In this document: piece after piece, positions 1,293 to 23,078 of the stretch
Position numbering within the stretch: position 1 is the first letter of the stretch
How the letters are laid out: each line of letters opens with the position of its first letter
From: Acidobacteriota bacterium
GTDB lineage: Bacteria > Acidobacteriota > Vicinamibacteria > Vicinamibacterales > UBA2999
DNA: 24,468 nucleotides
Direction of reading: 5' to 3'
NCBI GenBank assembly: GCA_031378585.1
Contig: JANNEJ010000801.1
Coordinates: 1-24,468 of the forward strand
Position numbers and translations under genes: made by a program
The notes under the pieces: model-generated
Seen by the model: the letters and a program-made list of their open reading frames with translations, nothing else
What the model was told of the DNA's origin: nothing
The model's database searches: none

Positions 1293-1901
1293 ATGCGTGC
1301 GCTGCTCGATGTCAACGTCTGGGTCGCCCTCTTCGACGATGCCCATCAGTTCTCGGCGCGGGCCAATACCTTCATCGACGCCCGCGACACCAAGATCGCC
1401 AGTTGCCCGATGGTGGAGAACGCCGTGATCCGGGTGATGAGCCTGCCTTCCTACGGCCGCGCCGGCGGGCTGCCGATGCAACGGGTCCGCGCACGCCTCA
1501 GCGAAGCCTGCGGCGCGCTCGACCACCAGTTCTGGCCCGATGACATCACCCTGCGCGACGACGCCCGCGTCGACTTCTCGCGGGTCCAGGGCCACAACCA
1601 GATCACCGACCTGTACTTGCTCGCGCTGGCTGTGCACCATGGCGGACGGCTCGTCACGTTCGACCAGGCGATCTCGCTGCGCAGCGTGCGGGGCGCCACG
1701 CCGCGTCACCAGCCTCTTCTCGGACGTCGAAGGCACCTGTCGCGCCCGGAGTGCCGCTACGCGCTGGCTCGCCGACCAGTGTGCTCGGACGATCGCGATC
1801 AGTCGATGGTCTTCACGCGGCCTTCACCGGCCGCCTCGAGCGCCGTGGTCATGCCGGCCGTCAACCCGTCGGCCGGCCGCTGCACGCCGACCAGGATGTA
1901 G
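1293..1901 (+). CDS. vapC: Type II toxin, VapC PIN-domain ribonuclease with an atypical ~59-aa read-through tail
   Basis: LLDVNVW (Asp), MVENA (Glu), QITDLYLLALA (Asp), LVTFD (Asp) acidic tetrad; PIN domain ends near residue 143; the ORF continues to 1901, overlapping the convergent actD-like gene by 103 bp. Confidence 0.85.
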   Translation: MRALLDVNVWVALFDDAHQFSARANTFIDARDTKIASCPMVENAVIRVMSLPSYGRAGGLPMQRVRARLSEACGALDHQFWPDDITLRDDARVDFSRVQGHNQITDLYLLALAVHHGGRLVTFDQAISLRSVRGATPRHQPLLGRRRHLSRPECRYALARRPVCSDDRDQSMVFTRPSPAASSAVVMPAVNPSAGRCTPTRM

Positions 1902-2305
1902 CCGTCTGACACTTCCGGGTCGTAGAGCGGCGGCAGACGACGTGGCAACTTGGCGCTCACAAACAGCGTCAGCACCGTGGCCAGAATCGCGCCGAGCATC
2001 GTCATCTCGAACATCACGATCAGGTTCGGCCACGGCGCCACGATCGGCATGCCGCTGGTCTTGAGCGGCCACGATTGCTGCGTGAGGGTCGTCAACAAGT
2101 AGGCGCCGGTCAGTCCGATCACACCGCCCAGGCCTGCGATCCAGTGCATCCAGGTGGCGCTGTCCTTGTGGCTGAATTCGTACTCTTCGAATGGCTCCGA
2201 CGACATCACCTGGATGTCGGCGTTGGCCACGCCGGCCGCGCGCAGGCCGTGGACAGCCCGCTGCGCGGTCTCCGGGCTGTTGTAGAGGCCGTAGATCGCG
2301 GTCAT
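1799..2305 (-). CDS. ActD-like (DUF3341) two-TM membrane subunit of the second ACIII-like module
   Basis: 168 aa from ATG 2305 (ATGA overlap with the NrfD stop); IYGLYNSPE..., MSSEPFEE, two TM helices with MFEMTMLGAILATVLTLF, LYDPEVSDG. The longer track ORF (to 3595) is a shadow of the NrfD gene. Confidence 0.85.
   Translation of the reverse strand: MTAIYGLYNSPETAQRAVHGLRAAGVANADIQVMSSEPFEEYEFSHKDSATWMHWIAGLGGVIGLTGAYLLTTLTQQSWPLKTSGMPIVAPWPNLIVMFEMTMLGAILATVLTLFVSAKLPRRLPPLYDPEVSDGYILVGVQRPADGLTAGMTTALEAAGEGRVKTID
1802..1841 (-). repeat. Second copy of the 40-bp direct repeat (current 3' end of the actD-like gene)
   Basis: 37/40 identity with positions 1-40. Confidence 0.9.
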
Positions 2306-3660
2306 GGACGCGCCCTCCACAGGCCTTGCGCTTCCTCTTCGTCGTCCACGGGCACGGCCGGGTGCGGCTGGTTGCCCACCTTCATCTCCCAGATCGAGAT
2401 GATCGGCACGAACTTCGAGAACAGCATGTAGAGCAGCGCCATGGCCGCGAAGGTGGCGACCATGATGATGATCTCCGGGGTCTGCGGGCCGTAGGTGCCC
2501 CAGCTGTAGGGCAGCTGCTTGGTCGACAGCCCAGGCACGATGATGAGGAAGCGCTCGAGCCACATCCCCACGACTACACCGCACGAGACCATCACGATGC
2601 TGGGCAGCGTCCGCAGCCGACGGAACGACAGGATGCTGACCGGAATGATGAAGTTGCAGAACACCATGGTCCAGTAGAACGGCGCGAACGCGCCGCGCTG
2701 CGTGGCCCAGAACACCGCCATCTCGGACGGCTCGTTGCCGTACCACACGGTCAGCCGCTCCGAGAATACGAAGTAGCCCCACAGCAGGCTCATGAGCAGC
2801 AGCAGCTTGGCGAGGTTGTCGAAATGCAGCGGATGCAGATAGGCATGCAGTCGCAGCGTGCGCCGCAGCACGGCCATGGCGATGATGAGCGCGGCAATGC
2901 CGCTGAAGATCGCGCCGGCCACGAAGTAGGGCCCGAAGATCGTCGAATGCCACATCGGCACATGGGCCATCGAGAAGTCGAACGACACGATGGTGTGCAC
3001 CGACACCGCCACCGGGATGATGGCCACGGCCATGATCTGCATCGCCGTTTCGAGGCGGTGCCACTGCATGGTGGTGCCCTGCCAGCCCAGCGCCAACGCG
3101 CCGTAGATGCGCTGGCGCAGTCCGGTGGTGCGGTCGCGGATCAACGCGAAGTCGGGAATCATCGGCAGCAGCAGGAAGAGCAGGCTGCCGATCAGATAGG
3201 TGTTGATGGCGAAGAAGTCCCACACGAGCGGCGAGCGGAAGTTGGGCCACAGTTCGCGCGAGCTCGGGTAGGGCGCGACCCAGAAGAACAGCCACGGCTT
3301 GCCCAGGTGGACTATCGGGAAGATCGCGCCAATCATCAGCGCAAACGCGGTGATGACCTCGGCGCAGCGGGTGACCGGACGGCGCCAGCGCGCGTTGACC
3401 AGACGCAGGATCGCGGAGATCAACGTACCGGCGTGGCTGATGCCGATCCAGAACACGAAGTTGGTTTCGTAGAAGCCCCAGAACACTGGCCAGTTCACGC
3501 CGGCCACGCCCATTCCGTACCAGAGCTGATAGGCCCATGCGGCCGCGCCGCACAGCACGATCGAGGCAAGGATCAGCCCCACGCCGTAGAACCACACCGT
3601 GGTGTGGAGCAACGGCCGCACCAGGTCGTCGGCGAGCGGGTTATTGCGTGTCCGGTTCAT
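2302..3660 (-). CDS. NrfD/PsrC-family quinone-interacting membrane subunit, ActC-like (second module)
   Basis: 452 aa, polytopic; FWIGISHAGTLISAIL, RSPLVWDFFA, SVHTIVSFDF, WHSTIFGPYFVAGAIFSG, GMWLERFLII are ActC motifs. Confidence 0.92.
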   Translation of the reverse strand: MNRTRNNPLADDLVRPLLHTTVWFYGVGLILASIVLCGAAAWAYQLWYGMGVAGVNWPVFWGFYETNFVFWIGISHAGTLISAILRLVNARWRRPVTRCAEVITAFALMIGAIFPIVHLGKPWLFFWVAPYPSSRELWPNFRSPLVWDFFAINTYLIGSLLFLLLPMIPDFALIRDRTTGLRQRIYGALALGWQGTTMQWHRLETAMQIMAVAIIPVAVSVHTIVSFDFSMAHVPMWHSTIFGPYFVAGAIFSGIAALIIAMAVLRRTLRLHAYLHPLHFDNLAKLLLLMSLLWGYFVFSERLTVWYGNEPSEMAVFWATQRGAFAPFYWTMVFCNFIIPVSILSFRRLRTLPSIVMVSCGVVVGMWLERFLIIVPGLSTKQLPYSWGTYGPQTPEIIIMVATFAAMALLYMLFSKFVPIISIWEMKVGNQPHPAVPVDDEEEAQGLWRARP

Positions 3661-4348
3661 TCCACGACTGCCGTTGCAGGTACGTAACCTTCGGTTCGGT
3701 GCCCAGGTCTTCGAGCAGCTTGGTGCCCCGGGGCGAGTGAGTGAGCCGCGCCACGCGGCTCTCGTGATCGTTCAAGTCGCCGAAGATGATGGCGCCGGCC
3801 GGGCACGACTGCGCGCACGCCGGCTGCACGTCGGCCTCGGTCACTGATCGGTCCTCGGCCTTCGCCGTGGACTTACCCGACTTGATCCGCTGCACACAGA
3901 ACGTGCACTTCTCCATCACGCCCACTTCGCGCACCGACACATCGGGGTTCAACTGCAACTGCAGGGGCTTTTCCCACTGCGGGTTGAAGAAGTTGAAGAA
4001 GCGGACGTTGTAGGAACAGGCGTTGGCGCAGTAGCGCGTGCCGATGCAGCGGTTGTAGACCTGGGCATTCAGCCCTTCGTCGGTCTGATGGCTGGCATAA
4101 GTCGGGCACACGGCTTCGCACGGCGCGTTGTCGCAGTGCTGGCACATGACCGGCTTGAACTTCACTTTCACGTCTGGGAAGTCGCCCTCCCAGTAGCGTT
4201 CGACGCGCAGCCAGTGCATGGCGCGGCCGCGCGCCGCTTCGGTGGCGCCTGACGTCGGGATGTTGTTCTCGGCGTGGCAGGCGGTCACGCAGGCTTCGCA
4301 GCCCGTGCACTTGTCCAGATCCACGACCATGCCCCAGCGATGCGCCAT
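3641..4348 (-). CDS. 4Fe-4S dicluster-domain electron-transfer subunit (ActB2/QrcC/PsrB-like)
   Basis: 235 aa from ATG 4348 with a GAGGA RBS; CTGCEACVTAC, CQHCDNAPCEAVC, CIGTRYCANAC (one Cys replaced by Thr, 3Fe-4S type as in ActB), EKCTFC...PACAQSCP. Confidence 0.92.
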   Translation of the reverse strand: MAHRWGMVVDLDKCTGCEACVTACHAENNIPTSGATEAARGRAMHWLRVERYWEGDFPDVKVKFKPVMCQHCDNAPCEAVCPTYASHQTDEGLNAQVYNRCIGTRYCANACSYNVRFFNFFNPQWEKPLQLQLNPDVSVREVGVMEKCTFCVQRIKSGKSTAKAEDRSVTEADVQPACAQSCPAGAIIFGDLNDHESRVARLTHSPRGTKLLEDLGTEPKVTYLQRQSWNEPDTQ

Positions 4349-4350
4349 CA

Positions 4351-4512
4351 GTGGCCGGTCCTCTCGAGGTTCGTGGTGAATTCCGACGCGCGGCGCCCGA
4401 GCGCCAAGGCGCGACGAGCGAGAATACCAAGCCTGTATTTGAGCGAGGAGCAACGCCGGCGGTCGGGATGCCCCGCGAGGAAGTCGCCGCGAAGATCGGG
4501 AGGACCGGCCAC
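4351..4512. repeat. 162-bp palindromic intergenic element (MITE/REP-like) with 13-bp perfect terminal inverted repeats
   Basis: gtggccggtcctc (4351-4363) is the exact reverse complement of gaggaccggccac (4500-4512); 4370-4384 vs 4479-4493 pair at 12/15; inner ccgac-N3-cggcg / cgccg-N3-gtcgg (4383-4395 / 4454-4466); central aatac-N7-gtatt hairpin. Confidence 0.75.
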
Positions 4513-6693
4513 CTAGCCCCGTCCTTTGGTGTGGTCGGGCCGCTCGCGCGTGGCACCGGCAAACAGAATCAGGCTGCCGTCCGCGTCGGCCACCTTCGCG
4601 ATCTTCACGCGCGTGGCTGCCCAGGCGAGCTGCCCCGACGCGGCCTCCGCGACGGGCGCCAGAATGGCGAGCGGATTGGACCCGCGACCGCTGGCGTAGC
4701 GCGTGAACGTGCCGTGTCCCTGTCCGGCCGGCATCGCCACCGCACCTGGACCGATGCCTGGAGAGATCACCGCCGGCGCACGCACCGACCCGTACGCCGA
4801 GGCGATTTCGACGATGTCGCCGTCTGCGATGCCAAGCTCCTGGGCCGCGCGTCCGTTGATCTCGACCCAGCTGCTCCACATGGCCGTCGTCAGCGGATCG
4901 GGCAGCTCCTGCAGCCACGGCAGATGGGCCAGCGAGCCGTCGAGCAATGCCTGCGAGGCGAACGGGAAGAACTGAAACGGGTATTCGCTCGGGTTGCCGT
5001 CGAACTCTGGAGCCCGCCATGCCGTGGGTGCCGGCACGGCAGCCGCTCGACCAGGCGCGCCCAGCGCGGCAGCGAGGGGCGACGGCTCGGGCGCGAGCGG
5101 CGTCTGCAGCATCTCTTCGAAAGTCTGCCACGGCATCGCCGGGCTGAGCGGCTGCTTCAAGCGGCGGCCGGCATCCAGCAGCACGTCAGGCATGGACCGC
5201 GTGTCGTAGAGCGGACGCATGGCGGGCGGCGCAACGGTGGCGACATGCGCTGTCGCGCCTGATTCCGGCGCCGAGTCGACCCACGATTCCAGGAACGAGT
5301 GGTCGGGCAGGATCAGGTCGGCCAACACGCTCGTGTCGTCGATGAACGATCCGAAGCTGGCAATGAACGGCACCTGTCGCAGCCACTCGCCGGCCTTCCA
5401 CGCGGATGGCGCTGCAAACACCGGGTTCGCCTCGTCGAGCAGCAACAACTGCGGGGGGGCCGCGGCAAGAGCGTCGCGCAGTGAGCGTGGCGCGCGCGCG
5501 GGGGCCGCCGTCTGCGGCATGAACGACATGCCGCCTTCGGCGCCCACGCTGCCCACGAGCGCGTTCAGGGCGTTGACCGCCAGTGCCTGCGCGAGTCCGT
5601 TGGTGTGCGCCAGCGGAGCGCCGCCAATCACCGCCACGGCAGGGCCGTACTCCGCGAACTCCCGCGCCAGCCGCTCGATGCGCGCGACCGGCACGCCCGT
5701 CTCTTTGGCTGCGGCGTCGGGTGTGAACGCCGGAAGACCCGCCGACCAGCCGTCAACGAGCGCACCGGCACGGCCAGCGGCATCGCCAGGCCTGAGGCCG
5801 GCCTTCATGATGACGTGCGCCAGACCAAGCGCCAGCGCGCCTTCGGTGCCCGGCCGTACGGCCAGCCACTCGTCGGCGCTCGCGCCGGTCTGCGACATGC
5901 GCGGCTCGACCTGCACGAACTTCGGCCGCACGCCCCCACGGCCCTGACGCATCGCGCCATACGCTACGCTGTGGGCCAGGGGCGAGTTCCAGGTGCCCAG
6001 GAAGTCGGCGCCGAAGTTGACGAGATACCGCGTGCGCGCCAGATCAAAGGTCGGCAACTGGTGGCGGCCGAAGCTCAACTCGTTGGCATGACGCAGAACC
6101 GCGTCGTCGAAGATCTCGAACGTGAGGGGCGCAGGCGCGCCGAGCCGCCGCAGGAACTCCGACACGAGTTCGTGCCGGCGTCCACGGCGGGGTCGCGACA
6201 GGAACGCGATCTGCGCGGGACCCGCCGCAACCGCGGCGTCGAGACGCTCAACCAGCATCGCCAGCGCCTCGTCCCACGAGATCTCGGTGAACTGACCGCT
6301 GCCGCGCTCGCCGGTGCGTCGCTGCGGTGCCACGAGCCGGTCGGGGTGATAGGTGACCTGCACGCCAGCCTGGCCGCGCACGCACAGCCGGCCTTGGCTG
6401 ATTGGATGCGCCGCATCGCCTTCGAGCTTCCGCACGAGGCCCATGCGCGTCACGCCGGGCTGGCCCTTGCGGAACACCTCCGCATCGCCGTCCATGACCC
6501 GGGCCGACACGCCGCAGCCTGCCGCGCAGAGCGGACACACGCTGGGCTTCCACACGGCAATGCCCGGCAGGATTTCCTCGTCAGGAATGAACCGGACGAT
6601 CTGATTCTCGGGATTGCCACAACTGGCCAGCGCCGCGGTCGTGCCGGTGATGGCGGTGACCTTGATAAACCGCCGGCGGTCCATGGTGTTCAT
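4513..6693 (-). CDS. Molybdopterin-oxidoreductase-family subunit (ActB1/QrcB-like), Tat lipoprotein with N-terminal FS0 motif
   Basis: 726 aa; MDRRRFIK Tat motif and LASC lipobox; C53-x2-C56-x3-C60-x43-C104; VEPRMSQTGASADEWLAVRPGTEGALALG; C-terminal LPWLQELPDP...WVEIN...LGIADGDIVEI domain typical of the ActB/QrcB branch. Start could be 6684. Confidence 0.9.
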   Translation of the reverse strand: MNTMDRRRFIKVTAITGTTAALASCGNPENQIVRFIPDEEILPGIAVWKPSVCPLCAAGCGVSARVMDGDAEVFRKGQPGVTRMGLVRKLEGDAAHPISQGRLCVRGQAGVQVTYHPDRLVAPQRRTGERGSGQFTEISWDEALAMLVERLDAAVAAGPAQIAFLSRPRRGRRHELVSEFLRRLGAPAPLTFEIFDDAVLRHANELSFGRHQLPTFDLARTRYLVNFGADFLGTWNSPLAHSVAYGAMRQGRGGVRPKFVQVEPRMSQTGASADEWLAVRPGTEGALALGLAHVIMKAGLRPGDAAGRAGALVDGWSAGLPAFTPDAAAKETGVPVARIERLAREFAEYGPAVAVIGGAPLAHTNGLAQALAVNALNALVGSVGAEGGMSFMPQTAAPARAPRSLRDALAAAPPQLLLLDEANPVFAAPSAWKAGEWLRQVPFIASFGSFIDDTSVLADLILPDHSFLESWVDSAPESGATAHVATVAPPAMRPLYDTRSMPDVLLDAGRRLKQPLSPAMPWQTFEEMLQTPLAPEPSPLAAALGAPGRAAAVPAPTAWRAPEFDGNPSEYPFQFFPFASQALLDGSLAHLPWLQELPDPLTTAMWSSWVEINGRAAQELGIADGDIVEIASAYGSVRAPAVISPGIGPGAVAMPAGQGHGTFTRYASGRGSNPLAILAPVAEAASGQLAWAATRVKIAKVADADGSLILFAGATRERPDHTKGRG

Positions 6694-6709
6694 TTCGGGG
6701 TGGCCTGGC

Positions 6710-7336
6710 TCAGTAGTGGCACGTGAGGCAGTCGTTCGACGCCTGCTTCTGTTTGTGACAGTTCACGCAGAAGGCCATGTCCATGTCGACGGCCCGCACG
6801 GCCACGGTCTGCTCGGCCTGGTTGCCATGACACGTCGAACACGGGGTGCCGGCCTTGATGTGCGGGGCGTGCTCGAAGCGCACGTGGGCCTCGCGCGTGA
6901 ACCCATAGACGCGCTGCCACTGCAGGTCCAGCCCCTTCTCGTAGGTCGCGGTCAACTGCTTGATGAGCGGTGCGTCGGTGGCCACCTGCGAGTGGCAGAT
7001 CATGCAGGTGTTGATCGACGGAAACCCGGCGCGCGGGCTGCGTTCGACGCCCTCATGGCAGTCGGTGCACACCAGTTCCTTGTCGAGATGGATCTTGTGG
7101 CTGAACGGGAACGGCTGCTGCGGCTCTTTGCGCACGCCGAAGTGCGAGCGCACGCCCTCTCCGAAGGTGCGGTTCGCCGGCGTGTAGACCGAGGGCGTGC
7201 CCCAGCGCGACGGCTGGGCCATGCGTTCGGCCTGCACCTGCTCGGAGCGGCTGGACCAACCACTGCACCCGGCCGCCACGGCCGACAGCAACCCGACCAG
7301 AGCCCAGGCGAACCCGGAGCTCTTACTTCTGGACAC
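6710..7336 (-). CDS. Pentaheme cytochrome c (ActA-like), predicted lipoprotein
   Basis: 208 aa, GTG start overlapping the upstream stop; five CxxCH (CTDCH, CMICH, CSTCH, CVNCH, CLTCH); QPFPFSHKIH and FEHAPH ActA-type motifs; signal ending VAAG-C. Confidence 0.9.
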   Translation of the reverse strand: MSRSKSSGFAWALVGLLSAVAAGCSGWSSRSEQVQAERMAQPSRWGTPSVYTPANRTFGEGVRSHFGVRKEPQQPFPFSHKIHLDKELVCTDCHEGVERSPRAGFPSINTCMICHSQVATDAPLIKQLTATYEKGLDLQWQRVYGFTREAHVRFEHAPHIKAGTPCSTCHGNQAEQTVAVRAVDMDMAFCVNCHKQKQASNDCLTCHY

Positions 7337-7739
7337 TGCCGAGGCTGCGGACGTAGTTGACGAGATGCCAGGTGTCCTGGTCGGTCAGCTTGCCCTTGAG
7401 GCCCTTCATCAGGTACTCGGGTCCCGCGCCTTCTTGAATGACCACGAAGATCTCGCCGTCGCTGCCGCCGCGGTCCCAGGTGGCGTCGGCGAGGTTGGAC
7501 GGCTTCATGGTCTTGGGCGCCGACGGGCTGTCGCCTTTGCCGGTGGCACCATGACAAAAGCGGCAGTACTTCTGGAAGACCGCCTGCCCGGACGCCATCG
7601 ACGCGGCACTGGACGGCACTGGATTCTTCAGCTTGGCGGCCACGGCTCTGGATGTCGTCTGCTCGCCGGCGGCAGACAGACTCGTGGCCAACATCAGGCA
7701 CAGCACCGACAGACTTGCGACGAAACTTCGCTGACCCAT
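7323..7739 (-). CDS. Class I monoheme cytochrome c, probably soluble periplasmic
   Basis: 138 aa from ATG 7739 (GAGGAG upstream); Sec-type signal without an obvious lipobox; KNPVP...GQAVFQKYCRFCHG, SDGEIFVVIQEG, distal Met (LMKG), WHLVNYVRSL. Confidence 0.88.
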   Translation of the reverse strand: MGQRSFVASLSVLCLMLATSLSAAGEQTTSRAVAAKLKNPVPSSAASMASGQAVFQKYCRFCHGATGKGDSPSAPKTMKPSNLADATWDRGGSDGEIFVVIQEGAGPEYLMKGLKGKLTDQDTWHLVNYVRSLGSVQK

Positions 7740-7892
7740 CTCAGATATGACTCCTCGCGTGGCGTTCGCGATATTCGTGACCCGTAGGCAATCAATGACT
7801 ATTTGAGATTGACGGCAGCCAGACGGCCTCGCATCGTCACATACCCACACATCGAAATGCAATCGAACGTCTTCGCCCGTTGGCCTCGCGCC

Positions 7893-7914: not shown

Positions 7915-8541
7915 TCAGGAACGCGCTTTGCTGAGTACCCAGGTCGTCATGCAGCGCTGGTCCTGGACGATCGTCGTCTTCAACGGGTCCAGCTGGTGCC
8001 CACCGAGCCGCGCCGTGAGATTCATCAGACGTGCCTGGTCGACGAGATACCAGTCCGCGCCGTCGGGCAGCTGGAAACGCCCGCCGCCGAGCGGCCGCAT
8101 GCGGTGTTCCATGCCGATCGTCGACGACAGCCGGCAGAACAAGAGACCGCCGGGCTTCAGCACCCGCCACATCTCGAGCACCATCGCATCGAAGTGCTGG
8201 TCGTCGCGGGCAAAGTGCAGCACGGAGTTGCTGACGACGACGTCCATGGCCAGGTCGGCAAACGGCAGGCGCTCGATCAGGTCCACCCCGAAGCGGTCCG
8301 GCGCCAGCCACGGCGCCAGCGTGGCGGCCAACGCCCGCGCCGCGGCCACCGCGGCCGGGTCCCGGTCGGTGGCCCACAGATCGAAGCCCTCACGCAGCAT
8401 GTAGACCAGGTTGCGACCGGTGCCGCATCCCGCGTCGAGCACCTTCATGCCCTTGACGATGCGCCCGCGCAGCAGTTGGTCGAACAGGTAGATGTCGATG
8501 TGATCGAACTGGTCGAGCAGCGTCCCGGGGCCGGCCGTCAC
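7915..8541 (-). CDS. Class I SAM-dependent methyltransferase
   Basis: 208 aa; VLDAGCGTGRN motif I, MDVVVSNSVLHF, MWRVLKPGGLLF; substrate unknown. Confidence 0.9.
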   Translation of the reverse strand: MTAGPGTLLDQFDHIDIYLFDQLLRGRIVKGMKVLDAGCGTGRNLVYMLREGFDLWATDRDPAAVAAARALAATLAPWLAPDRFGVDLIERLPFADLAMDVVVSNSVLHFARDDQHFDAMVLEMWRVLKPGGLLFCRLSSTIGMEHRMRPLGGGRFQLPDGADWYLVDQARLMNLTARLGGHQLDPLKTTIVQDQRCMTTWVLSKARS

Positions 8542-8553
8542 GGTGCGTTCCTG

Positions 8554-10755
8554 CTACTTTCCGGGCGTGTAGGTCTTCTCGGTGTGGCCCTCGAGCTGCT
8601 TCGGGTAGAAGTAGACCTCGCGCAGGTTGCCGGTCGCATAGCGCTCAGCCTGGTCGTTGAAGTGCTTGGAGCTCGGGTCGCTGCTGAGACCGCCAGCCGT
8701 AATCGCCCGGGCGCGCACGCCGTCCTTGCCGAATTCCACCGCGGCCACGAAGCTATTGCCGCTCGACCCATAGATCTTCTTGCTGCCGTTGTACGACCGC
8801 GCACCAAACGAGGCCAGCGATCCCCACCGGGCGGACGCGAAGGCCACCGGCGTGCTCGGCTGGTCGTCGGTGTAGGGGTGCGCGATGGCCGGTGAGATGC
8901 GCTGGAAGCGGTTAATCTCGCCCCAGGCCGTCTTCCACGAGCCGAAGTCGGCCGCGAGCTTGTCGGACGCTGCCGCAAGCGCCTCGAGCCGCTGCTGGCC
9001 CGTGGCCTTCGTGCGCATGAACTCGTAGACGCCCACATTGGCCGTGCGGGCAGCGGGCGCGGACTTCGACCACAGCTCCTCGCCCCAGAAGATCGCGAGC
9101 GACTGCGGCACAGAATCCACGGCCCAGCGGCGATCCCAGGTCTTCAGCAACGCAATCTGCTCGGCCAGCTTGGCCTTGAGCGGGTTCGACACGGGCGTCT
9201 GGTCCCAGGCTTTCAGCAGCAGCGGGATCTGGAGGTCGAACTCGGGCTGCTGAGTGTCGAAGCCGGCCGCAATTAGCGCGTCGATTGAGAAATCCTTCTT
9301 CTTGTCGAGCACGCGGATCGCATGGATGCCACGCGGATTCTCGCCCGCGGTGTCGAAGTAGGCTGGGAAGGCGCTCTGCTTCTTGCTGTACGCGCCCGCG
9401 GCCATGAACGGCCAGTCATTGGTGTTGTAGACCCAGCCGTTGGGCGGATTCTCCACACTGGGGCTGTCGTCGACCGCGTGCACGCCCTGCCAGTCGTTGG
9501 CCGGCACGCTGCCGTCGACCGGCTTTGACCAGTCGAGCTTTGGGTTGCGCTTGGGCACGAAGTTCGAGTGGAAGTAGGCGATGTTGCCGTCGGCATCGGC
9601 ATAGAGCGTGTCGTTTGACGAGTTGGTGTGCAGCTCCATCACCTGCTTGTACTCGGCGATGTTCTTCGTCTTCGTGCGGCCGTACGACTGTTGCAGCGCC
9701 TTGAGGGGCTGCTCCATCAAGCTCACGGCCACCCACTTGCCGTCCTGCTCGCGCCCGATGGGCCCATGGTGCGTGCGGTACACCGTGAACTCTTTCGACG
9801 CCATGCCCGTGGCGGTCTTGTAGGGGATCGTGACCTTCTTGACCCGCACTTCACGTTCCTCGGCGCCGTACTTGTAGAAGGGCTTGCCGTCCTTCTGCAC
9901 GATGGTCTCGAGGAACTCATCGATGTTGTCGACCCCGCTCGACGTGTGCATCCAGCCAGCCTTCTCGTTGAACCCCTGGTAGATGAAGAACTGGCCCCAG
10001 GTGAGCGCGCCGTAGGCGTTGAGGCCTTCCTGGCTCGTGACCTGCGCTTCCTCGCGGAACGAGAACGACGTGTGCGGATTGATCCAGAGCAGCGCTTTGC
10101 CGGCGGTGGTGTTGGCTGGCGCCACGGCGAAGCCGTTTGACCCGGTGGGTTCGGGCGGCACACTCATGTAGCGCGGGTCAGCCTCGACGTGCGCGAGGGC
10201 CGCGGGGTTCTTGCCGTAGAAGGCTTCCAGGCGGGCTATTGACACGCTCTCGATATCGCCGCCGATGCTGCCTTCGCTGAAGCTGAGCGCCATCCACGGT
10301 TCAAACGTCGCGATCACGCGCGGCTTCACGTCGGGATGGGTGTGCAGGTAGTAGTTCAGGCCCTCGGCCCAGGCGGTCATGAGCGCCTTCAGGGAATCGG
10401 GCGCCTTCTCGTATTCCGCCTTCAGCTCGACGGGGTCGATGAAGAGCTTCATCCGCAAGTCGCGGTAGATCTCTTTTTCGCCTTCCGCCTCGGCCAGGCG
10501 GCCCATGGCGTTGATGAAATTCGTCTCGACCCGGTTGAAGTCGTCTTCCGCCTGCGCGTACATCAGACCGAACACCACATCCGCGTCGGTCTTGCCAGAG
10601 ATATGGGGCACGCCCCAGTCGTCGCGCACGATGGTGATACCCGCGGCGCGGGTTTGCCAGGCGGCCACCTCGGGGCTAACGGCCGGCGGAGGCGGCGGCG
10701 CAGCCTTGCAGGAGAGGCCGGCGACGAGCAGGGCGACGAGGGCAATGCGCTTCAT
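8554..10755 (-). CDS. Penicillin acylase family (peptidase S45, Ntn-hydrolase) lipoprotein
   Basis: 733 aa; LVAGLS-C lipobox; IVRDDWGVPHI, FGLMYAQAED, nucleophile G-SNGFAVAP, LWINPH, RTHHGPI, YADADGNIAY, WVYNTN. Confidence 0.93.
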   Translation of the reverse strand: MKRIALVALLVAGLSCKAAPPPPPAVSPEVAAWQTRAAGITIVRDDWGVPHISGKTDADVVFGLMYAQAEDDFNRVETNFINAMGRLAEAEGEKEIYRDLRMKLFIDPVELKAEYEKAPDSLKALMTAWAEGLNYYLHTHPDVKPRVIATFEPWMALSFSEGSIGGDIESVSIARLEAFYGKNPAALAHVEADPRYMSVPPEPTGSNGFAVAPANTTAGKALLWINPHTSFSFREEAQVTSQEGLNAYGALTWGQFFIYQGFNEKAGWMHTSSGVDNIDEFLETIVQKDGKPFYKYGAEEREVRVKKVTIPYKTATGMASKEFTVYRTHHGPIGREQDGKWVAVSLMEQPLKALQQSYGRTKTKNIAEYKQVMELHTNSSNDTLYADADGNIAYFHSNFVPKRNPKLDWSKPVDGSVPANDWQGVHAVDDSPSVENPPNGWVYNTNDWPFMAAGAYSKKQSAFPAYFDTAGENPRGIHAIRVLDKKKDFSIDALIAAGFDTQQPEFDLQIPLLLKAWDQTPVSNPLKAKLAEQIALLKTWDRRWAVDSVPQSLAIFWGEELWSKSAPAARTANVGVYEFMRTKATGQQRLEALAAASDKLAADFGSWKTAWGEINRFQRISPAIAHPYTDDQPSTPVAFASARWGSLASFGARSYNGSKKIYGSSGNSFVAAVEFGKDGVRARAITAGGLSSDPSSKHFNDQAERYATGNLREVYFYPKQLEGHTEKTYTPGK

Positions 10756-11236: not shown

Positions 11237-11346
11237 CAGGTGGCCGTTGGTCAGGCCACCTGGCCGCCCCGCGAAGCGGGGCAAAGAAACACTGCCCTAG
11301 CGAAGCCCCGCCGAACCGTGGTTGACATGTGGCGGCGCTTCGCTAG
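11237..11346. repeat. Three tandem hairpins between ctaE and ctaF (REP-like)
   Basis: caggtggcc-N8-ggccacctg (11237-11262); gccccgc-gaa-gcggggc (11266-11282); 16-bp arms with one mismatch (11297-11312 / 11331-11346) including the ctaE stop. Confidence 0.7.
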
Positions 11347-12126
11347 TTGTGGCGTTCCACGAGGTAGAGCAGCGGGAACAGGAAGATCCACACGATGTCG
11401 ACGAAGTGCCAATACAGGCCGGTCATCTCGACCGGTGCATGCCATTCGCTGTCGAAGCGGCCCTTGTGCGCCATCCACGTGATGATGAACAGAATGACGA
11501 TGCCCACGATCATGTGCAGCGCGTGCAGCCCGGTCATCACGAAGTAGAGGCTGAAGAAGAGCTGCGTGGTGCGCTGCAGTTCGTCTGGGCCCATCGTGGC
11601 GACGGCATGGCCCTCGCCGGCCGCTGGTGCTTCGTGGGCCTCTCCGGGAGCGGGCTCGTGCGCGAACTGGAAGCTCGCGCCCGGCACGTGATTATGAGCG
11701 AACTTGTCGGCGTACTCGTAGACCTTGATGCCGAGGAACACGCTGCCGAGCACAATCGTGGCCAGCAGCCAGTTGACGGTGGCCTTGCGCTGGTTGGTCT
11801 GCGAGGCCCGCACCGACAGTGCCATCGTCAGCGAACTGGCAATGAGCACCACGGTGTTGATCAAACCTGGCAGAATCTCAATCGACTTGCTGGCGGCGGC
11901 AAACGCCTCGTAGTACCACGAGCGGTAGAGTGTGTAGGCGAAGAACAGGCCGCCGAAGAACAGCACTTCGGTGAGCAGGAAGACCCACATGCCGAGCACG
12001 CCAGCTTCGCGCTGCTGCGACATCGTCTCGAAGTGATGCTGCAGCGCGGGGTGGTGCGCGTGGCTGTGACCAAGCGCAAGGCCGTGCCCATCCGCATGCG
12101 GGTGGGCGGCAGCGTGAACGTGGGCG

Positions 12127-12134
<8 letters not shown>
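11343..12134 (-). CDS. ctaE: Cytochrome c oxidase subunit III
   Basis: 263 aa, TTG start overlapping the ctaD stop; [53 protein letters not shown]. Confidence 0.95.
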
Positions 12135-13749
<1,615 letters not shown>

Positions 13750-13752
13750 GGC

Positions 13753-14766
13753 TTACCTTTGCGCGCCCTGCGCCGGCGCGGCTGGCGTACTGCTGGGGGT
13801 GGCCGCCGCCGGCACGAGCGCCGGTGCGCTGGTGGGCGCTTGCGGCGAGAGCGACTTGATGTGCTCGATGAGGGCGGCCAGGCCCTCTTCGCTGATGAGA
13901 CCCTGGAACGTGGGCATGAGCGGCGCGAAGCCCTTCACGACCTTGGACTGCGAGTTGAGAATCGATTCCCGCAGGTAGCCTTCGTCCACCATCACGGTCG
14001 TGCCGTCGGCCAGCTCCATGGGCTTGCCCATGATGTCCTTCAGCGACGGCCCGCGACCCTGGCCGTTGTCGAGATGGCAGGTGGTGCACGCAAGATCGTT
14101 GAAGAGCTTGCCGCCGCGTTCGGCCATCGTGCCCTCGGTGCCGCCGCCGGCGAGCCACGCCTGGTACTGCGGCGGCTCCATGACGACGACTTCGCCAATC
14201 ATGCCCGAGTGCTTGGTGCCGCAGTACTCCGCGCAGAAGATCCGGTAGCGGCCCGGCTTCGTGGCCGTGAACCACAGCGGTTGGTACCGGCCTGGGATGG
14301 CGTCGATCTTGGTACGGAAGGCCGGAAAGTACAGGTCATGCAGTACGTCTTCCGAGGTGACCAGGACTTTGATGGGCCGGCCCATCGGCACATGCAGCTC
14401 GTTGATTTCGCGCTGGCCGCCGGTGTGCTGGAACTTCCACATCCACTGCTCGCCGACCGCGTAGATCTGCATCGTCTCGGCTGGGGGCACGCGCATCTCG
14501 TAGAAGAGCTTGGCGCCCCAGCCGAACATCACCATGGAGATGATGGTCGGGATGATCGACCAGGCCAGCTCGAGCGGCAGCGACCCCTCGATATGGGCCC
14601 CGACTTCCTCGGCGTGTTTGCGTCGATACCGAATGCCGAAAAACACCACGGCAATCGCAACGGCCACCGTGAAGAAGGCCGACACGGCGACGATGAAGAG
14701 ATAGAGCGCGTCGACCTCCGAAGCGAAGGAGGAAGCGGCCTCTGGAAACAGCGAAATACCACCCAT
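13753..14766 (-). CDS. coxB: Cytochrome c oxidase subunit II with fused C-terminal cytochrome c (caa3-type)
   Basis: 337 aa; DVLHDL and CAEYCGTKHSGM CuA ligands; CTTCH heme motif with distal Met (PLMPTF). Confidence 0.96.
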   Translation of the reverse strand: MGGISLFPEAASSFASEVDALYLFIVAVSAFFTVAVAIAVVFFGIRYRRKHAEEVGAHIEGSLPLELAWSIIPTIISMVMFGWGAKLFYEMRVPPAETMQIYAVGEQWMWKFQHTGGQREINELHVPMGRPIKVLVTSEDVLHDLYFPAFRTKIDAIPGRYQPLWFTATKPGRYRIFCAEYCGTKHSGMIGEVVVMEPPQYQAWLAGGGTEGTMAERGGKLFNDLACTTCHLDNGQGRGPSLKDIMGKPMELADGTTVMVDEGYLRESILNSQSKVVKGFAPLMPTFQGLISEEGLAALIEHIKSLSPQAPTSAPALVPAAATPSSTPAAPAQGAQR

Positions 14767-14772
14767 ATGAAC

Positions 14773-15627
14773 TCAGTGCCCGGCTGGGGCGCGGCTATCG
14801 CGCCGAAGCGAAATCGCTATGAACCCGAACAGCACCACCATCGTGACGGCACCGCCCAGCCGCACGGCGTTCATCGCCGCGAAGCTGTAGGAACCCTTTG
14901 CCGGCTCGTAGTGATAGCAGTAGAGCAGCACCTGATCGACCACCGACCCGATTCGGCCTTCAGACGACTCCATCATCGCGAACTTCAAATCGCGCGGCGG
15001 GTACTCGATCCCGAAGAGATACCGCGCGAGCCGTCCGTCGGGAGTGGCGACGATGACCCCACTGGCGTGGGCGAACTGTTGGGTCTCGTCGTCCCACGCG
15101 AAGTGGAATCCCGCCGTGTCGGTCGCGCGCCGGATGTTGGCGTCGTCGCCGGTCAGGAAGTGCCAGCCCTGGTCAGAACCCGGCCGCGCATACCGGTCCA
15201 GATAGGTGGCTTTCTTCGCGGCCGCCATGACCGGCGTTTCGCGCGAGTCGATGCTGATGGCCACAACGTCGAAATCGGTGCCGACCGTCTGGTCGAGCAC
15301 GCCAATCGCGCTCACCAGTCCGTTGAGAATCTGGTTACAGAGCATCGGACATTCGTAATACACGAACGCCAGCACGACCGGCCGCTTGCCAAAGTAGTCG
15401 CCCAGCTTCACCGGCTGGCCGTGCTCGTCGCGGAAGGCCGCGTCGAGCGGCAGCACGGCATCGAGCTTCTGCTCGAAGCGCACGTTCTGCAGGGCTGAAG
15501 GCGTCGTGTCCGACGTGGGGCCGGGCGCTGGCCTCAGCCCAGGGGCATTGCCCTGTGCGCTCGCCGACACGGCTCCCGCCACGGCCAGTGCCGCGAGCGT
15601 CAGAGCGTATCGCCGGGTGATGTTCAT
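14773..15627 (-). CDS. SCO1/SenC family copper chaperone
   Basis: 284 aa; signal peptide, YYECPMLCNQIL (CxxxC), QFAHASG (His), C-terminal TM helix; directly upstream of coxB. Confidence 0.92.
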   Translation of the reverse strand: MNITRRYALTLAALAVAGAVSASAQGNAPGLRPAPGPTSDTTPSALQNVRFEQKLDAVLPLDAAFRDEHGQPVKLGDYFGKRPVVLAFVYYECPMLCNQILNGLVSAIGVLDQTVGTDFDVVAISIDSRETPVMAAAKKATYLDRYARPGSDQGWHFLTGDDANIRRATDTAGFHFAWDDETQQFAHASGVIVATPDGRLARYLFGIEYPPRDLKFAMMESSEGRIGSVVDQVLLYCYHYEPAKGSYSFAAMNAVRLGGAVTMVVLFGFIAISLRRDSRAPAGH

Positions 15628-15639
15628 GATGTCGGTGCG

Positions 15640-16110
15640 CTACCGTGCCGTGGTGGTACGGCCGCCTGATGAATCCTGCACGACCATCGACGCCGTCGAC
15701 CCACTGCCTGCACGCGCCGGCAGACCCCGCTGCAACGTGAGCGCCATGGCCCGTTCGATCGGGATGTGCACCACGCCGTTGGCCTTGTCCAGCCAGCCGT
15801 AGCTCGTGAGCGCGCCGCGTTGTGCGGTCTTCAGTTCGTAGATGTCCTTGAACGGCTGCGTCTGCAGCCGGGGTGCCGGCGGGTCCTGCGACAGGCCCTG
15901 CGCGAGCGGGAACGTGCGCGCGGCAGTGTCGACGGAGGTGGCGCGGGTGCCCAGGAACATGAAGATGCCGTAGACGAGCCCGGCCGAGAGCGCCATCGCC
16001 ACCGCCAGCCACAAGGCAAAGCGATAGCCGACGCCCGGCTCGATGTCCGTGTGCTCGTAGGCCGCTCCTGCGGGGGTGGGTCCGTATTCGTTGTCTGCGT
16101 CGTTCGACAT
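15640..16110 (-). CDS. actG: ACIII accessory subunit ActG
   Basis: 156 aa, single TM helix, PRLQ...YGWLD...VHIPIERAM motif; located after actF. Confidence 0.75.
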   Translation of the reverse strand: MSNDADNEYGPTPAGAAYEHTDIEPGVGYRFALWLAVAMALSAGLVYGIFMFLGTRATSVDTAARTFPLAQGLSQDPPAPRLQTQPFKDIYELKTAQRGALTSYGWLDKANGVVHIPIERAMALTLQRGLPARAGSGSTASMVVQDSSGGRTTTAR

Positions 16111-16150
16111 ATCAGTCCTGCGCTTCGTCCTTCGTTGGGGCGTTCTGGTC

Positions 16151-16185
16151 GAGCCCCAGTCCCCAGCCCCTAGCCCCCAGACCCC
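16151..16185. repeat. Five tandem degenerate heptamers, G-tract rich on the coding strand
   Basis: gagcccc-agtcccc-agcccct-agccccc-agacccc; minus strand reads GGGG TCT GGGGG CTA GGGG CT GGGG ACT GGGG. Confidence 0.8.
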
Positions 16186-16188
16186 GAG

Positions 16189-17373
16189 CTAGTGCGTGTG
16201 GTGCGTCAACGCCTTGGCCAGTCCTTCGTCGTGGAGCGGCAGCAGCGGTCGCCCCTTCAACTGGGCGGCAAACAGCATCACGAACACGCCGCCAAGCGCG
16301 ATGGGCAGCGCGATGTCGATGAGACCGACCGAGAGGCCTTCGTGATGGAACTCGGGCGCGACGTGCCAGTAGTAGTCGACCAATCGGACGGCGACCATCC
16401 AGGACGCAATCAGACTCAACCGGCGCCAGTCGCGCTTGATGTCGCGTGAGAGCAGCAACACGTAAGGCAGCACGAAGTGGAGCGCCACCAGTGCCCAGCC
16501 GACAAACTGCCAGCCGTTCTGCGCGCGCACCCAGTAGTGCGGAATCTCTTCCTGCGTGTTGGCCGAGTAGATGATGAGGAACTGCGAGAACGACAGGTAG
16601 GCCCACAGCATGATGAAGGCGAAGAGCAGCTTGGCCAGGTCATGGAAATGCGAGGGGTTGATGACCTTGTCGAACGGGGCGTCCTTCGACAGCATCACCA
16701 GCACGGCAATCGAGAAACCCAGCGCCGACAGCGCCTGGCCCACGATGTAGAGCAGTCCCCACATGGTCGAGAACCAGTGCGGGTTGATCGACATGGTCCA
16801 GTCGACGACCGCAAATGTCACGGTGAGGCCGAACACCAGCAAGCCGCCGCCCGACAAGGCCGCCATCTTCTTTGCCATGGCCGGGTCGCCCGTGCGGTCT
16901 TGTTCGGCCGACCACTTGCTCAGCAGCGTGGCCATGCCAGTCCACACGGCGAAGTAGAACACCTGGCGCGCCAGGAAGAACGGCGTGTTCAGGTAGGCCA
17001 CCTTGTCCCGGATCACGGGGTCGCTCGCGGCCGCCTCGGCGTCGGTCCAGTGGTAGAGGTGGTCCATACCGAAGACGATGGGAATGAAGAGCACCGCCAT
17101 GAACGGCAGCGTTCGGGTCGACGCTTCGAGCACGCGACGGATCACCAGGCCCCAGGCGCCGCCCGTGAGGTGCTGCACCATGAGCAGCGCCAGGCTGCCG
17201 AGACCCACGCCAGTCCAGAATACCCACGCCACCAGATACGCCTCGTAGAAGCGGTCTGCGCCGGACATGGTGAAGCCCACGCCCGTCAACACCGCGCCAA
17301 CGACGGCGGCGATCATGGCCTTGTTCTGAACGCCCGAGACGCTCGCGGGCGCGCTGTCTGTTTCCGCAGTCAT
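16189..17373 (-). CDS. actF: ACIII subunit ActF (NrfD-like membrane protein)
   Basis: 394 aa from ATG 17373; LMVQHLTGGAWG, YLNTPFFLAR, DWTMSINPHWFSTMWG, HFHDLAKLLFAF, YLSFSQFLIIY. Confidence 0.92.
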   Translation of the reverse strand: MTAETDSAPASVSGVQNKAMIAAVVGAVLTGVGFTMSGADRFYEAYLVAWVFWTGVGLGSLALLMVQHLTGGAWGLVIRRVLEASTRTLPFMAVLFIPIVFGMDHLYHWTDAEAAASDPVIRDKVAYLNTPFFLARQVFYFAVWTGMATLLSKWSAEQDRTGDPAMAKKMAALSGGGLLVFGLTVTFAVVDWTMSINPHWFSTMWGLLYIVGQALSALGFSIAVLVMLSKDAPFDKVINPSHFHDLAKLLFAFIMLWAYLSFSQFLIIYSANTQEEIPHYWVRAQNGWQFVGWALVALHFVLPYVLLLSRDIKRDWRRLSLIASWMVAVRLVDYYWHVAPEFHHEGLSVGLIDIALPIALGGVFVMLFAAQLKGRPLLPLHDEGLAKALTHHTH

Positions 17374-17375
17374 GT

Positions 17376-18005
17376 CTAGTGTTCCGCCTTCTTCGCAGGC
17401 TCGGTTCCGGCCGCGGCGAGCGAGGCCGCCGGAGCATCGAGCCGGCCGCGGTCGGCCGCGGGCACGTCGTCGACCGTGGCGTTCTGGCTGAGCTGCAGGG
17501 CACGCACGTAGGCGGCAATCAGCCAACGGTCGCGCGGAGGAATCTGATCGGCGTAACCCTGCATCGCGCCGAAGCCGTTGGTGACGACGTCGTAGAAGTA
17601 GCCCGGGGCAATCTGCCGCAGCCGGTCCTGGTGATAGGTCGCGGCCTGCCGGAGCCCGCGCTGCACCACCATGCCCTTGCCGTCGCCGAGTTGACCGTGG
17701 CAGGGCGTGCAGTAAATGGTGAATCGTTCCCGCCCGCGGTCCAGGTCGCTGGCCGTGACGGCAAACGGGAAGGTCGACGCGAGTTCGCCGTCGACCTTAC
17801 CGGTGTAGAAGTGGTCGTCGTCGCGCAGCTGGCCGCGGGCCACCGTGCCGGCCGGCAGGTTGCGCGAGGCGCGGCCGTCGGCAAACGAGGCGTTCGCCTC
17901 GTAGACCTCGTAGTTCGGGCCGTTGTGCATATCCTGACGGCAACCGGCAAGCAGGGCCGACGCCGCGACGAGCGCACACGTGAGCAGACGTCCATTATTC
18001 CGCAA
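17376..18005 (-). CDS. actE: ACIII subunit ActE, monoheme cytochrome c lipoprotein
   Basis: About 209 aa from TTG 18005 overlapping the actD end; LLAG-CRQDMH lipobox; CTPCH; GFGAM distal Met; DRWLIAAYVRALQ. Confidence 0.92.
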   Translation of the reverse strand: MRNNGRLLTCALVAASALLAGCRQDMHNGPNYEVYEANASFADGRASRNLPAGTVARGQLRDDDHFYTGKVDGELASTFPFAVTASDLDRGRERFTIYCTPCHGQLGDGKGMVVQRGLRQAATYHQDRLRQIAPGYFYDVVTNGFGAMQGYADQIPPRDRWLIAAYVRALQLSQNATVDDVPAADRGRLDAPAASLAAAGTEPAKKAEH

Positions 18006-18543
18006 CGTCGTACACTCCCTTCGCGCCAAGACCCTGCAGGAACGCGCCCGTCTGCTCCACGGCGAAGTGCGCATCTTCGGCCTCGATGACGAGAAAGAAC
18101 TTGTCGGACGACGCCAGCGAGAACCGCTCCACGTTGAACACGGGGTGATAAGGCTGCGGCAGGCCGTTCAGCGCAATCATCCCGATGGCCGCCGTGAGCG
18201 CCGAGAAGAGAATCGTCAGCTCGTACGACGGAATGACGAACGCCGGCCACGTGCCGAGCGGGCGGCCACCGACGTTCATCGGATACTCGATGGCCGACGC
18301 CCAGTACTGCAGCGTGAAGCCGGTGGCCATGCCACAGAACGCCATGAAGAGCACGAGCTTCGGCAGGATCGTCCGCTTCTTGTGGATGATGTCGTTCAGT
18401 TCTTCGATCGGGATCGGCGTGTACGCCTCCATCCTGGAGTAACCCGCGGCTACGGCCTTGATCGATGCGTCGACGATGCCTTGCGCCGAGTCGAACTCGG
18501 CCATCAGCCCGTAGAGCCCCGTCTTGTCTGTGTTCGCCTGCAT
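17995..18543 (-). CDS. actD: ACIII subunit ActD (DUF3341)
   Basis: 182 aa; YGLMAEF, EAYTPIP, VGGRPLGTWPAFVIPSYELTILF, LPQPYHPVF, SDKFFLVIE. Confidence 0.93.
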   Translation of the reverse strand: MQANTDKTGLYGLMAEFDSAQGIVDASIKAVAAGYSRMEAYTPIPIEELNDIIHKKRTILPKLVLFMAFCGMATGFTLQYWASAIEYPMNVGGRPLGTWPAFVIPSYELTILFSALTAAIGMIALNGLPQPYHPVFNVERFSLASSDKFFLVIEAEDAHFAVEQTGAFLQGLGAKGVYDVAE

Positions 18544-18557
18544 GACTTGAATCCCGC

Positions 18558-22900: not shown

Positions 22901-23060
22901 GATCGTTGAATTCGGAGGCGTTGGCCGGGAACTCGCGGTGCAGGAACTCCTTGAACTCCGGAGTTTCCGCGACGGCTTCCAGGCTGCGCCAGTACTGCGG
23001 ACCGCTGGCGTCCTGGAGCTTGGCGCGAATGGCGTTGAGATCTAGCTGCTCTGCACTCAT
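19974..23060 (-). CDS. actB: ACIII subunit ActB (fused molybdopterin-like and FeS domains)
   Basis: 1028 aa; YWRSLE extended-Tat region, GRRNFLK, VTG-C lipobox; no FS0 cysteines (YATAMSLGG); GRFANNGWLQELP; C-terminal CTGCNACVVAC, CQQCENAPCEVVC, CVGTRYCSNNC, CTYC...TACEAASP. Confidence 0.96.
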   Translation of the reverse strand: MSAEQLDLNAIRAKLQDASGPQYWRSLEAVAETPEFKEFLHREFPANASEFNDPVGRRNFLKLMSASLALAGVTGCTVQPDELIVPYVRQPEELVPGKPLFYATAMSLGGVATGLLVESHEGRPTKIEGNPDHPASRGGTDLFAQASVLTLYDPDRSSSMTELGEIRPWSGFVAAMRGALSAQAASKGAGLRILTETVNSPTLAAQIQQILAAHPDAKWIQWEPTTRDNVRAGARMAFGSYVEPVYDFAVADVVLSLDADFLAAENAFGVKYARAFASRRRLDADPDRFSRLYVAEATPSVTGGRADHRLPMKASQVDAFARAVAAALGVTGITGAAPSGTEAFVAAIAKDLAAHRGASLVVAGEGQPAAVHAVAHAMNDLLGNAGQTVTYMPTPEEDASEQHAAMRQLVVDMNAARVQALLIVGEANPVFTAPADWKFGEALQKVALRAHSGLFYDETAEQCQWHVPSTHYLEMWSDARSLDGTVSIVQPLLQPMNGGKSPHEVVATLSDRAERNGYDVVREYWMAAAAGAASVIQAGAPAGTMAAPAATFEKQWRRWLHDGYIDGSAFGATSVALNAGWNAGLAGPTAVPAFEVVFKRDASVYDGRFANNGWLQELPKPVTKLTWDNAALIGPGTAERLAVKNGDLLKVTHDGRAIDAPVWIDPGHALDAITIAVGYGRARAGRVGTGVGVNTYALRGSSAPWFGAAEVAKTGGTYELVSTQDHWSIEGRNLVRSTNLEEYKANPAFAHEMEHMKLSDGLTLYPKWEYSGYSWGMAIDLNTCTGCNACVVACQSENNIPVVGKDQVGNGREMHWLRIDRYYSGDIDNPDTYYQPMPCQQCENAPCEVVCPVSATVHSAEGLNDMVYNRCVGTRYCSNNCPWKVRRFNFTLYQDWETPSLKMQRNPDVTVRSRGIMEKCTYCVQRINSARIDAKREDREIRDGEVVTACEAASPSQAITFGNLNDPTSRVAKLKANPRNYSMLAELNTRPRTTYLAAVRNPNPALPSNPTVGGHTGSHDAASTESEH

Positions 23061-23078
23061 CGTTCTGAATCCGTCCTC

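Follow-up and report, generated by a model that had tools for sequence, protein, structure and literature searches.

What is the large subunit of a second respiratory module that lies beside a canonical alternative complex III (ACIII) operon in an Acidobacteriota bacterium? The 24,468-nucleotide stretch analysed here (contig JANNEJ010000801.1 of assembly GCA_031378585.1; the window) encodes this subunit, B1, on its minus strand at 4513-6693. A first-pass annotation of the window offered two answers. B1 could be a new molybdenum (Mo) or tungsten (W) enzyme, with Asp196 as the metal ligand, wired to an ACIII core. Alternatively, it could be a cofactor-less subunit that keeps the iron-sulfur (FeS) cluster FS0 as an extra electron entry or exit point for a soluble partner. 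The best explanation overall, to which we give a probability of about 0.7, is a Mo-free B1 that retains FS0 in a second complex of the ACIII/Qrc type. The second answer fits the invariant cysteines, the affinity to QrcB and ActB, the ActB-type last domain and the lack of a nearby chaperone gene. The first does not survive the variation at the ligand position, the CxxCxxxC motif and the profile scores described below. The features of B1 that bear on this question are as follows.

4513..6693, minus strand: B1, ActB1/QrcB-like large subunit (P0001), 726 amino acids, from the open reading frame (ORF) and its translation
6667..6678, minus strand: twin-arginine motif RRRF, B1 residues 6-9; R6, R7 and F9 invariant in 39 orthologues
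6619..6621, minus strand: Cys25 of a lipobox (LASC), invariant in 66/66 orthologues
6346..6552, minus strand: FS0 domain, B1 residues 48-116, Pfam Molybdop_Fe4S4, E 6e-13
6535-6537, 6526-6528, 6514-6516 and 6382-6384, minus strand: codons of the FS0 cysteines C53, C56, C60 and C104
6106..6108, minus strand: Asp196, the Mo-ligand position, opposite the ligand cysteine of ArrA, PsrA and PhsA in alignments
6082..6105, minus strand: conserved stretch immediately C-terminal to Asp196, residues 197-204 (D/E197, V199, L200, R201, A203, N204)
4894..4941, minus strand: ActB-type signature DGSLAHLPWLQELPDP, residues 585-600, opening the last domain

The FS0 motif of B1 reads C53-x2-C56-x3-C60-x43-C104. 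Besides Cys25, these are the only cysteines in the protein. The first-pass annotation had called the motif intact, and both the sequence and the Pfam match agree. Conservation was followed in 66 cleanly extracted B1 orthologues of at least 56% identity, from species-level genomes, and in 123 full-length representatives of the wider family with 35-57% identity to B1. Since all four cysteines are invariant in 66/66 orthologues, the motif is not there by chance. All four are also retained in 112 of the 123 distant representatives. The canonical ActB encoded in the same window (19974-23060) lacks the FS0 cysteines, again as first noted, and its B1 part holds only C76 and C463. The B1 motif is of the CxxCxxxC type, which is the mark of the Cys lineage. 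Arg106 adjoins the fourth cysteine and is invariant in the orthologues; seven of 30 wider-family members have L, Q or T instead. On the tree described below, FS0 is absent from two separate sub-clades, one made up of the branch of canonical ActB together with P0216, the other of P0165, P0149 and P0169. Fused B forms that carry FS0 also occur in the wider family (P0131).

The x43 spacing reflects 16 extra residues inserted between FS0 cysteines three and four (window 6385-6513, B1 residues 61-103). This insertion is found in all 66 acidobacterial orthologues, while most wider-family members and PhsA have x27. In the AlphaFold2 (AF2) model the insertion takes the form of a long beta-hairpin whose strands span 61-75 and 78-92.

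At the Mo-ligand position the picture is one of decay. Three independent alignments put D196 in place of the Mo-ligating cysteine of ArrA, PsrA and PhsA, which upholds the gap-free alignment first proposed. In phmmer searches against the PDB it falls opposite the ligand cysteine of ArrA (6CZ7; HSSVC) and PsrA (2VPW; SVsLC), with no gaps nearby. MAFFT L-INS-i gathers into one column D196, the cysteine of a plasmid-borne PhsA, the cysteine of two TorD-associated Arx/Arr-like enzymes and the YnfE/YnfF position matching the ligand cysteine. In the AF2 model, residue 196 sits in a loop directly before helix 198-208. The aspartate itself is not conserved. The 66 orthologues have Asp (25), Gly (20), Ser (15), Ala (4), Asn (1) or Thr (1) at this position, and its conservation of 0.38 against a median of 0.79 puts it in the lowest 11% of columns. 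Among the 123 distant representatives the position is hypervariable, with 16 different residues. The first-pass annotation had itself taken an unconserved Asp196 to speak against a metal ligand, and because position 196 is unconserved the Asp-ligand idea is refuted.

The residues that follow are under strong constraint. Column conservation over residues 197-204 is 0.83-1.00, residue 198 excepted; residue 197 is D or E in 63/66 orthologues and residues 199-204 are nearly invariant. R201 is invariant in all 66 and aligns with an ArrA lysine five residues past the ligand cysteine. Relatives that bear the ligand cysteine also have an acidic residue directly after it. Because of the conserved 197-204 segment and this shared acidic residue, the region around position 196 is taken as ancestral, with decay at the ligand position alone. 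The HxSxC context is gone from B1, which has F192 and E193. Asp196 fills a decayed ligand position and has no conserved role. By profile score, B1 does not belong to the Asp-coordinating type II dimethyl sulfoxide (DMSO) reductase lineage (NarG, EbdA, PcrA). It scores 97 bits with the TIGR03479 model of the type II DMSO-reductase alpha subunit (cut-off 985) and 33 bits with the narG model (cut-off 1084). In phmmer searches against the PDB, PcrA and NarG match B1 over residues 101-300 only.

The last domain of B1 is of ActB type. D585, G586, H590, Q595 and E596 of its signature are invariant in 66/66 orthologues. The pattern DG[RS]xAN..WLQELPxP is common to B1 and the window's canonical ActB and is absent from PhsA, YnfE/F and Arx-like enzymes. 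PFASQALLDG of B1 stands where YnfE has HYKSRTHS, in keeping with the replacement of the enzyme motif that had been spotted by eye. The VEPR...ADEWLAVRPGT region of B1 is much closer to YnfE and PhsA than its ActB equivalent is, as had been claimed of active enzymes in general. No gene for molybdenum cofactor (Moco) synthesis and no TorD-type chaperone gene lies in the window, a first-pass observation that stands. Nor was a TorD-type gene found in the conserved flanks of the fetched loci, or a PF02613 (TorD-type) match in the 78%-complete genome. Two plasmid-borne Cys-bearing enzymes adjoin a TorD-type gene. Taken as sequence evidence, these features suggest that the Mo/W bis-pyranopterin guanine dinucleotide (bisPGD) cofactor has most probably been lost from B1. 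Neither Pfam scores nor profile coverage tells members that bind a cofactor from those that do not; a TorD-associated Cereibacter enzyme has the same shortened PF01568 match (profile 28-106), and its PF00384 score is 83 bits against 70 for B1.

In two enzyme motifs, DPR and PGTD, the Asp is replaced by Glu in B1, as E263 (5902-5904) and E284 (5839-5841). Each is E in 61/66 orthologues, and in 24/30 and 28/30 members of the wider family, respectively. Conserved acidic residues at positions of nucleotide-binding type are unexpected for a cofactor-free protein.

All three domains of a Mo-bisPGD catalytic subunit are recognised in B1 by Pfam: Molybdop_Fe4S4 (PF04879) at 48-116, Molybdopterin (PF00384) at 119-469 and Molydop_binding (PF01568) at 605-675. 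The AF2 model has a pLDDT of 90.9 and shows the four-domain Mo-bisPGD fold. The twin-arginine (Tat) motif is followed by the lipobox, and a lipid anchor at Cys25 is probable. Long plus-strand ORFs over 5219-6726 were discounted, since hundreds of full-length homologues exist for the B1 frame on the minus strand.

Where does B1 belong in the family? The best NCBIfam model is QrcB (NF041783), at 299 bits and below its cut-off of 440, followed by PhsA and ArrA; in the whole-genome profile search the QrcB score was 237 bits. The best Swiss-Prot model is Desulfovibrio vulgaris QrcB (Q72E84), with 29% identity over residues 4-701. Eighteen candidate representatives run against the QrcB model all scored below the cut-off. 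The FS0 status of QrcB is taken from the statements of two papers, cited below. Among PDB sequences, phmmer ranks ArrA (E 1e-41) and PsrA (4e-35) best, with the ActB chains behind (E 1e-21 to 1e-23). Foldseek with the B1 model gives ArrA (TM score 0.74, the best) and PsrA (0.73), within a span of 0.70-0.74 for ArrA, FdhH, Nap and PsrA. A quick maximum-likelihood tree (LG+G4), sampled without PDB ActB or QrcB sequences, unites B1 and 38 other rows in one clade with an SH-aLRT support of 100. The window's canonical ActB nests in this 39-row clade on a very long branch (1.69), beside an FS0-less fused form, and three Cys-bearing relatives fall outside it. B1 probably descends from an ArrA/PsrA-like molybdoenzyme. 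On this tree, loss of the Mo ligand would have come first, with FS0 lost later in some branches; textbook ActB would therefore be the most reduced form.

The six minus-strand genes of the B1 module encode a cytochrome c, pentahaem A, B1, B2, NrfD-like C and ActD-like D. The partners of B1 are as follows.

7323..7739, minus strand: monohaem cytochrome c (ActE-like), one CxxCH; Pfam Cytochrome_CBB3 and Cytochrom_C; M42 of the listed ORF is the probable start
6710..7336, minus strand: A, pentahaem cytochrome c (ActA/QrcA-like) with lipobox, five CxxCH; 34% identity to canonical ActA
3641..4348, minus strand: B2, four-cluster ferredoxin subunit (QrcC/ActB2-like), 15 Cys; NCBIfam QrcC 253 bits
2302..3660, minus strand: C, NrfD-like membrane subunit; Pfam NrfD E 2e-28; 42% identity to canonical ActC, 22% to ActF
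1799..2305, minus strand: D, ActD-like subunit; Pfam ActD E 3e-27; 23% identity to canonical ActD

B2 is 53% identical to the C-terminal part of canonical ActB and repeats its cysteine pattern, three four-Cys groups and one three-Cys group. All 15 cysteines are invariant in 71 orthologues. The CIGTRYCANAC group of B2 corresponds to the three-Cys group of ActB and is the putative [3Fe-4S] site. The protein starts at the first cysteine group and has no signal peptide; because of this, B2 is presumably co-exported with the Tat-signal-bearing B1, as in PsrAB or DmsAB. Canonical ActB has at residue 954 (20199-20201) a Ser where the last FeS-ligand Cys is expected (TACEAASPSQAI), and B2 has Cys there (PACAQSCPAGAI). 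The cysteine list of ActB stops at residue 950, and the cluster with Ser954 is the one that would face B1.

These data can be set against the structure of ACIII. The B1 domain of the Rhodothermus marinus complex holds no prosthetic group (PMC5928083). A [3Fe-4S] cluster beside the quinol site supplies the ActA/ActE haem wire; three [4Fe-4S] clusters run towards B1 and stop about 7 A below the surface, and for this side wire, the role of which is unknown, an external redox partner was suggested (PMC5928083). We propose that a second quinone-interacting complex of the ACIII/Qrc type, without ActF, has B1 as its large subunit, that B1 is Tat-exported and probably lipid-anchored, and that it would still bind one [4Fe-4S] cluster, FS0, through C53, C56, C60 and C104. 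In the alpha-beta pairs of complex iron-sulfur molybdoenzymes, FS0 adjoins the first cluster of the beta subunit; by homology, docking of B1 on B2 would bring FS0 next to the B2 cluster farthest from the membrane. FS0 would then be an added fifth cluster, and the three-[4Fe-4S] side wire would reach the vestigial active-site region, where electrons may flow via FS0. The complex could work in either direction, oxidising quinol as ACIII does or reducing quinone as Qrc does.

How do other explanations fare? An active Mo/W-bisPGD enzyme with Asp196 as a NarG-type metal ligand, wired to an ACIII core, is very improbable. The alignment of D196 with the ligand cysteines of ArrA, PsrA and PhsA, the retained fold and many enzyme-conserved residues would fit it, and the genome has MoaC. 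However, a minority of same-operon orthologues have Asp at one of the least conserved positions of B1, and many have Gly or Ala, which are unable to ligate metal. Further, the FS0 motif is as in the Cys lineage, TIGR03479 falls below its cut-off, no chaperone gene is nearby and the last domain is of ActB type. Several observations do weigh against a cofactor-free B1 as such. Of 60 columns identical in five annotated Mo enzymes, B1 keeps 47, ActB 18 and the Cys-bearing relatives 45-51. With the N-terminus excluded (50 columns), B1 keeps 39, the Cys-bearing relatives 41-43 and members without ligand and FS0 27-36. A cofactor-binding pocket may therefore be under selection in B1. The genome carries MoaC and seven other PF00384 matches, so Moco can be made. 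Loss of the ligand alone is no proof of loss of Mo, because arsenite oxidase AioA holds Mo-bisPGD without an amino-acid ligand (PMC10100899). If a cofactor of pyranopterin or nucleotide type, either Mo/W-bisPGD or a pterin without metal, were bound in the AioA manner, with B1 catalytic or relaying electrons beyond FS0, this would account for the column retention, for the invariant R106 and for the Glu kept at the DPR and PGTD positions. We nevertheless consider this reading quite unlikely. The residue over the metal should be constrained, yet it is D, G, S or A among orthologues, and the closest relatives to have been characterised, QrcB and ActB, contain no cofactor (PMC10772276, PMC5928083). 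Column retention is a weak indicator of a cofactor because members lacking both ligand and FS0 still keep more than half of the 50 columns. R106 is replaced in part of the wider family, and no TorD-type gene was found nearby. The genome's Moco genes are uninformative on B1.

In some NuoG/Nqo3 proteins of complex I, the cluster equivalent to FS0, N7, is kept but lies outside the main electron path. FS0 of B1 could likewise be bound as an off-pathway structural relic with no electron-transfer role, an account of the locus that we find doubtful though not far-fetched. FS0 was lost at least twice in the family while the module was kept (the ActB and P0165/P0149/P0169 branches), which argues that it is dispensable, and ACIII functions without it (PMC5928083). 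Against a relic stand the invariance of the FS0 cysteines in the orthologues and their retention in most distant representatives. The 12 cysteines of the B2 [4Fe-4S] side wire are invariant too, and the cysteines of both subunits together argue for selection on the wire; this fits a continuous wire, but a folding role would look alike. Within a Mo-free B1 that retains FS0, we give about the same probability to a functional port, which would serve a soluble partner, as to a structural relic. That the B1 family is not inert, whether through a ligand-free cofactor of pterin type or through FS0 as a true second electron port of a five-cluster wire, seems unlikely. If such a port were real, this ACIII variant would trade electrons with a periplasmic partner besides the haem wire, making it a branched or bifurcating quinol oxidoreductase.

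Besides the B1 module, the window holds a canonical actABCDEF operon and, after it, a caa3 oxidase (11343-23913), and each subunit of the B1 module has a paralogue there. B1 is 25% identical to ActB, and the monohaem cytochrome c is 26% identical to canonical ActE over 94 residues. A scores 61 bits with the QrcA model, under its cut-off. No second NrfD-like gene (ActF) is present in the B1 operon or its conserved flanks. Relatives of B1 are encoded in 503 stretches of species-level genomes, and synteny was examined on the best 80 of these, nearly all labelled Acidobacteriota (Vicinamibacterales, Terriglobia, Bryobacteraceae, Ca. Sulfopaludibacter). The A-B1-B2-C-D order is kept in all 80 fetched loci of sufficient extent, with the cytochrome c gene upstream in most. 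Distant members have a multihaem cytochrome, B1 or a fused B, NrfD, ActD and sometimes a cytochrome c. No conserved flanking genes were found outside the six-gene module (at most 9/44 loci). No RNA data for 1799-7862 were found among the public runs listed; the matching DNA runs are freshwater-sediment metagenomes. An acidobacterial "qrcABCD", which may correspond to the B1 module, has been reported to be transcribed under anoxia (PMC10564751).

Other features of the surroundings were recorded. A methyltransferase gene (7915-8541) and a penicillin-acylase-like gene (8554-10755) separate the canonical ACIII-caa3 operon from the B1 module, and about ten close relatives show the same arrangement (window 7915-10755). 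The operon ends at a plus-strand ORF, 1293-1901, which is PIN-domain-like by eye and lies immediately past the ActD-like gene; a 98% identical copy occurs in one other locus (L001), and the remaining fetched loci do not have it. In a relative of 47% identity (P0124; L085:448-12067), A-B1-B2-NrfD-ActD lies beside a divergent NarG-like nitrate reductase gene, which is accompanied by genes for a cytochrome c and an Rrf2 regulator. The module may, from this context, be connected with anaerobic respiration.

The group of ACIII/Qrc-type complexes to which B1 belongs is large and uncharacterised. In this group the unexplained three-[4Fe-4S] side wire of ACIII (PMC5928083) would be one cluster longer, and the group is a natural handle on it.

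How does the B1 module compare with known systems? B1 resembles QrcB of the Nitratidesulfovibrio vulgaris QrcABCD menaquinone reductase in being a Tat-exported, Mo-bisPGD-like subunit without a Mo ligand, whose gene neighbours encode a four-cluster ferredoxin, an NrfD-like subunit and a multihaem cytochrome. According to published descriptions, QrcB contains no bis-molybdopterin guanine dinucleotide and no FeS cluster (PMC10772276, PMC13059093; the lack is also cited to PMC6303296). B1, in contrast, has four invariant FS0 cysteines and scores below the QrcB cut-off. Its module encodes a cytochrome of five haems rather than the six of Qrc, together with ActD-like and monohaem cytochrome genes. 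QrcD has been reported from Deltaproteobacteria only (PMC8076601).

Like ACIII of R. marinus (6F0K), Flavobacterium johnsoniae (6BTM) and Roseiflexus castenholzii (6LOD), B1 is encoded with ActA-, ActC-, ActD- and ActE-like genes. Unlike ActB, B1 and B2 are separate genes, the FS0 cysteines are present and the operon lacks ActF. B1 is also far more enzyme-like than ActB by the column counts given above. Among Cys-ligated Mo-bisPGD reductases, ArrA and PsrA/PhsA share the FS0 motif type and supply the closest PDB matches, and a published phylogeny places ActB beside ArrAB (PMC10100899). B1 differs from them in having a non-conserved residue for the ligand cysteine, an ActB-like motif in the last domain and no TorD-type chaperone gene found. 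NuoG/Nqo3 of complex I and FhcB are precedents, Mo-free MopB proteins that kept the fold and lost the cofactor (PMC10100899). Unlike B1, they lie in the formate dehydrogenase branch, are cytoplasmic and serve in a different complex.

Judged by its published description, the iron-oxidiser ActB1 offers a close parallel. In the neutrophilic iron oxidisers Ferriphaselus and Mariprofundus, Kato et al. (2015) described a split actB1 with a CX2CX3CX27C [4Fe-4S] motif, followed by actB2 (PMC4643136), so an FS0-bearing ActB1 was already known from sequence. B1 is similarly split, carries the CX2CX3CXnC motif and lies next to B2. The iron-oxidiser clusters have the order actAB1B2CDEF, with ActF and x27 spacing, while the B1 module has x43 and no ActF. 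The B1 complex would be a variant of the known ACIII/Qrc type with an FS0-bearing split ActB1, not a new enzyme.

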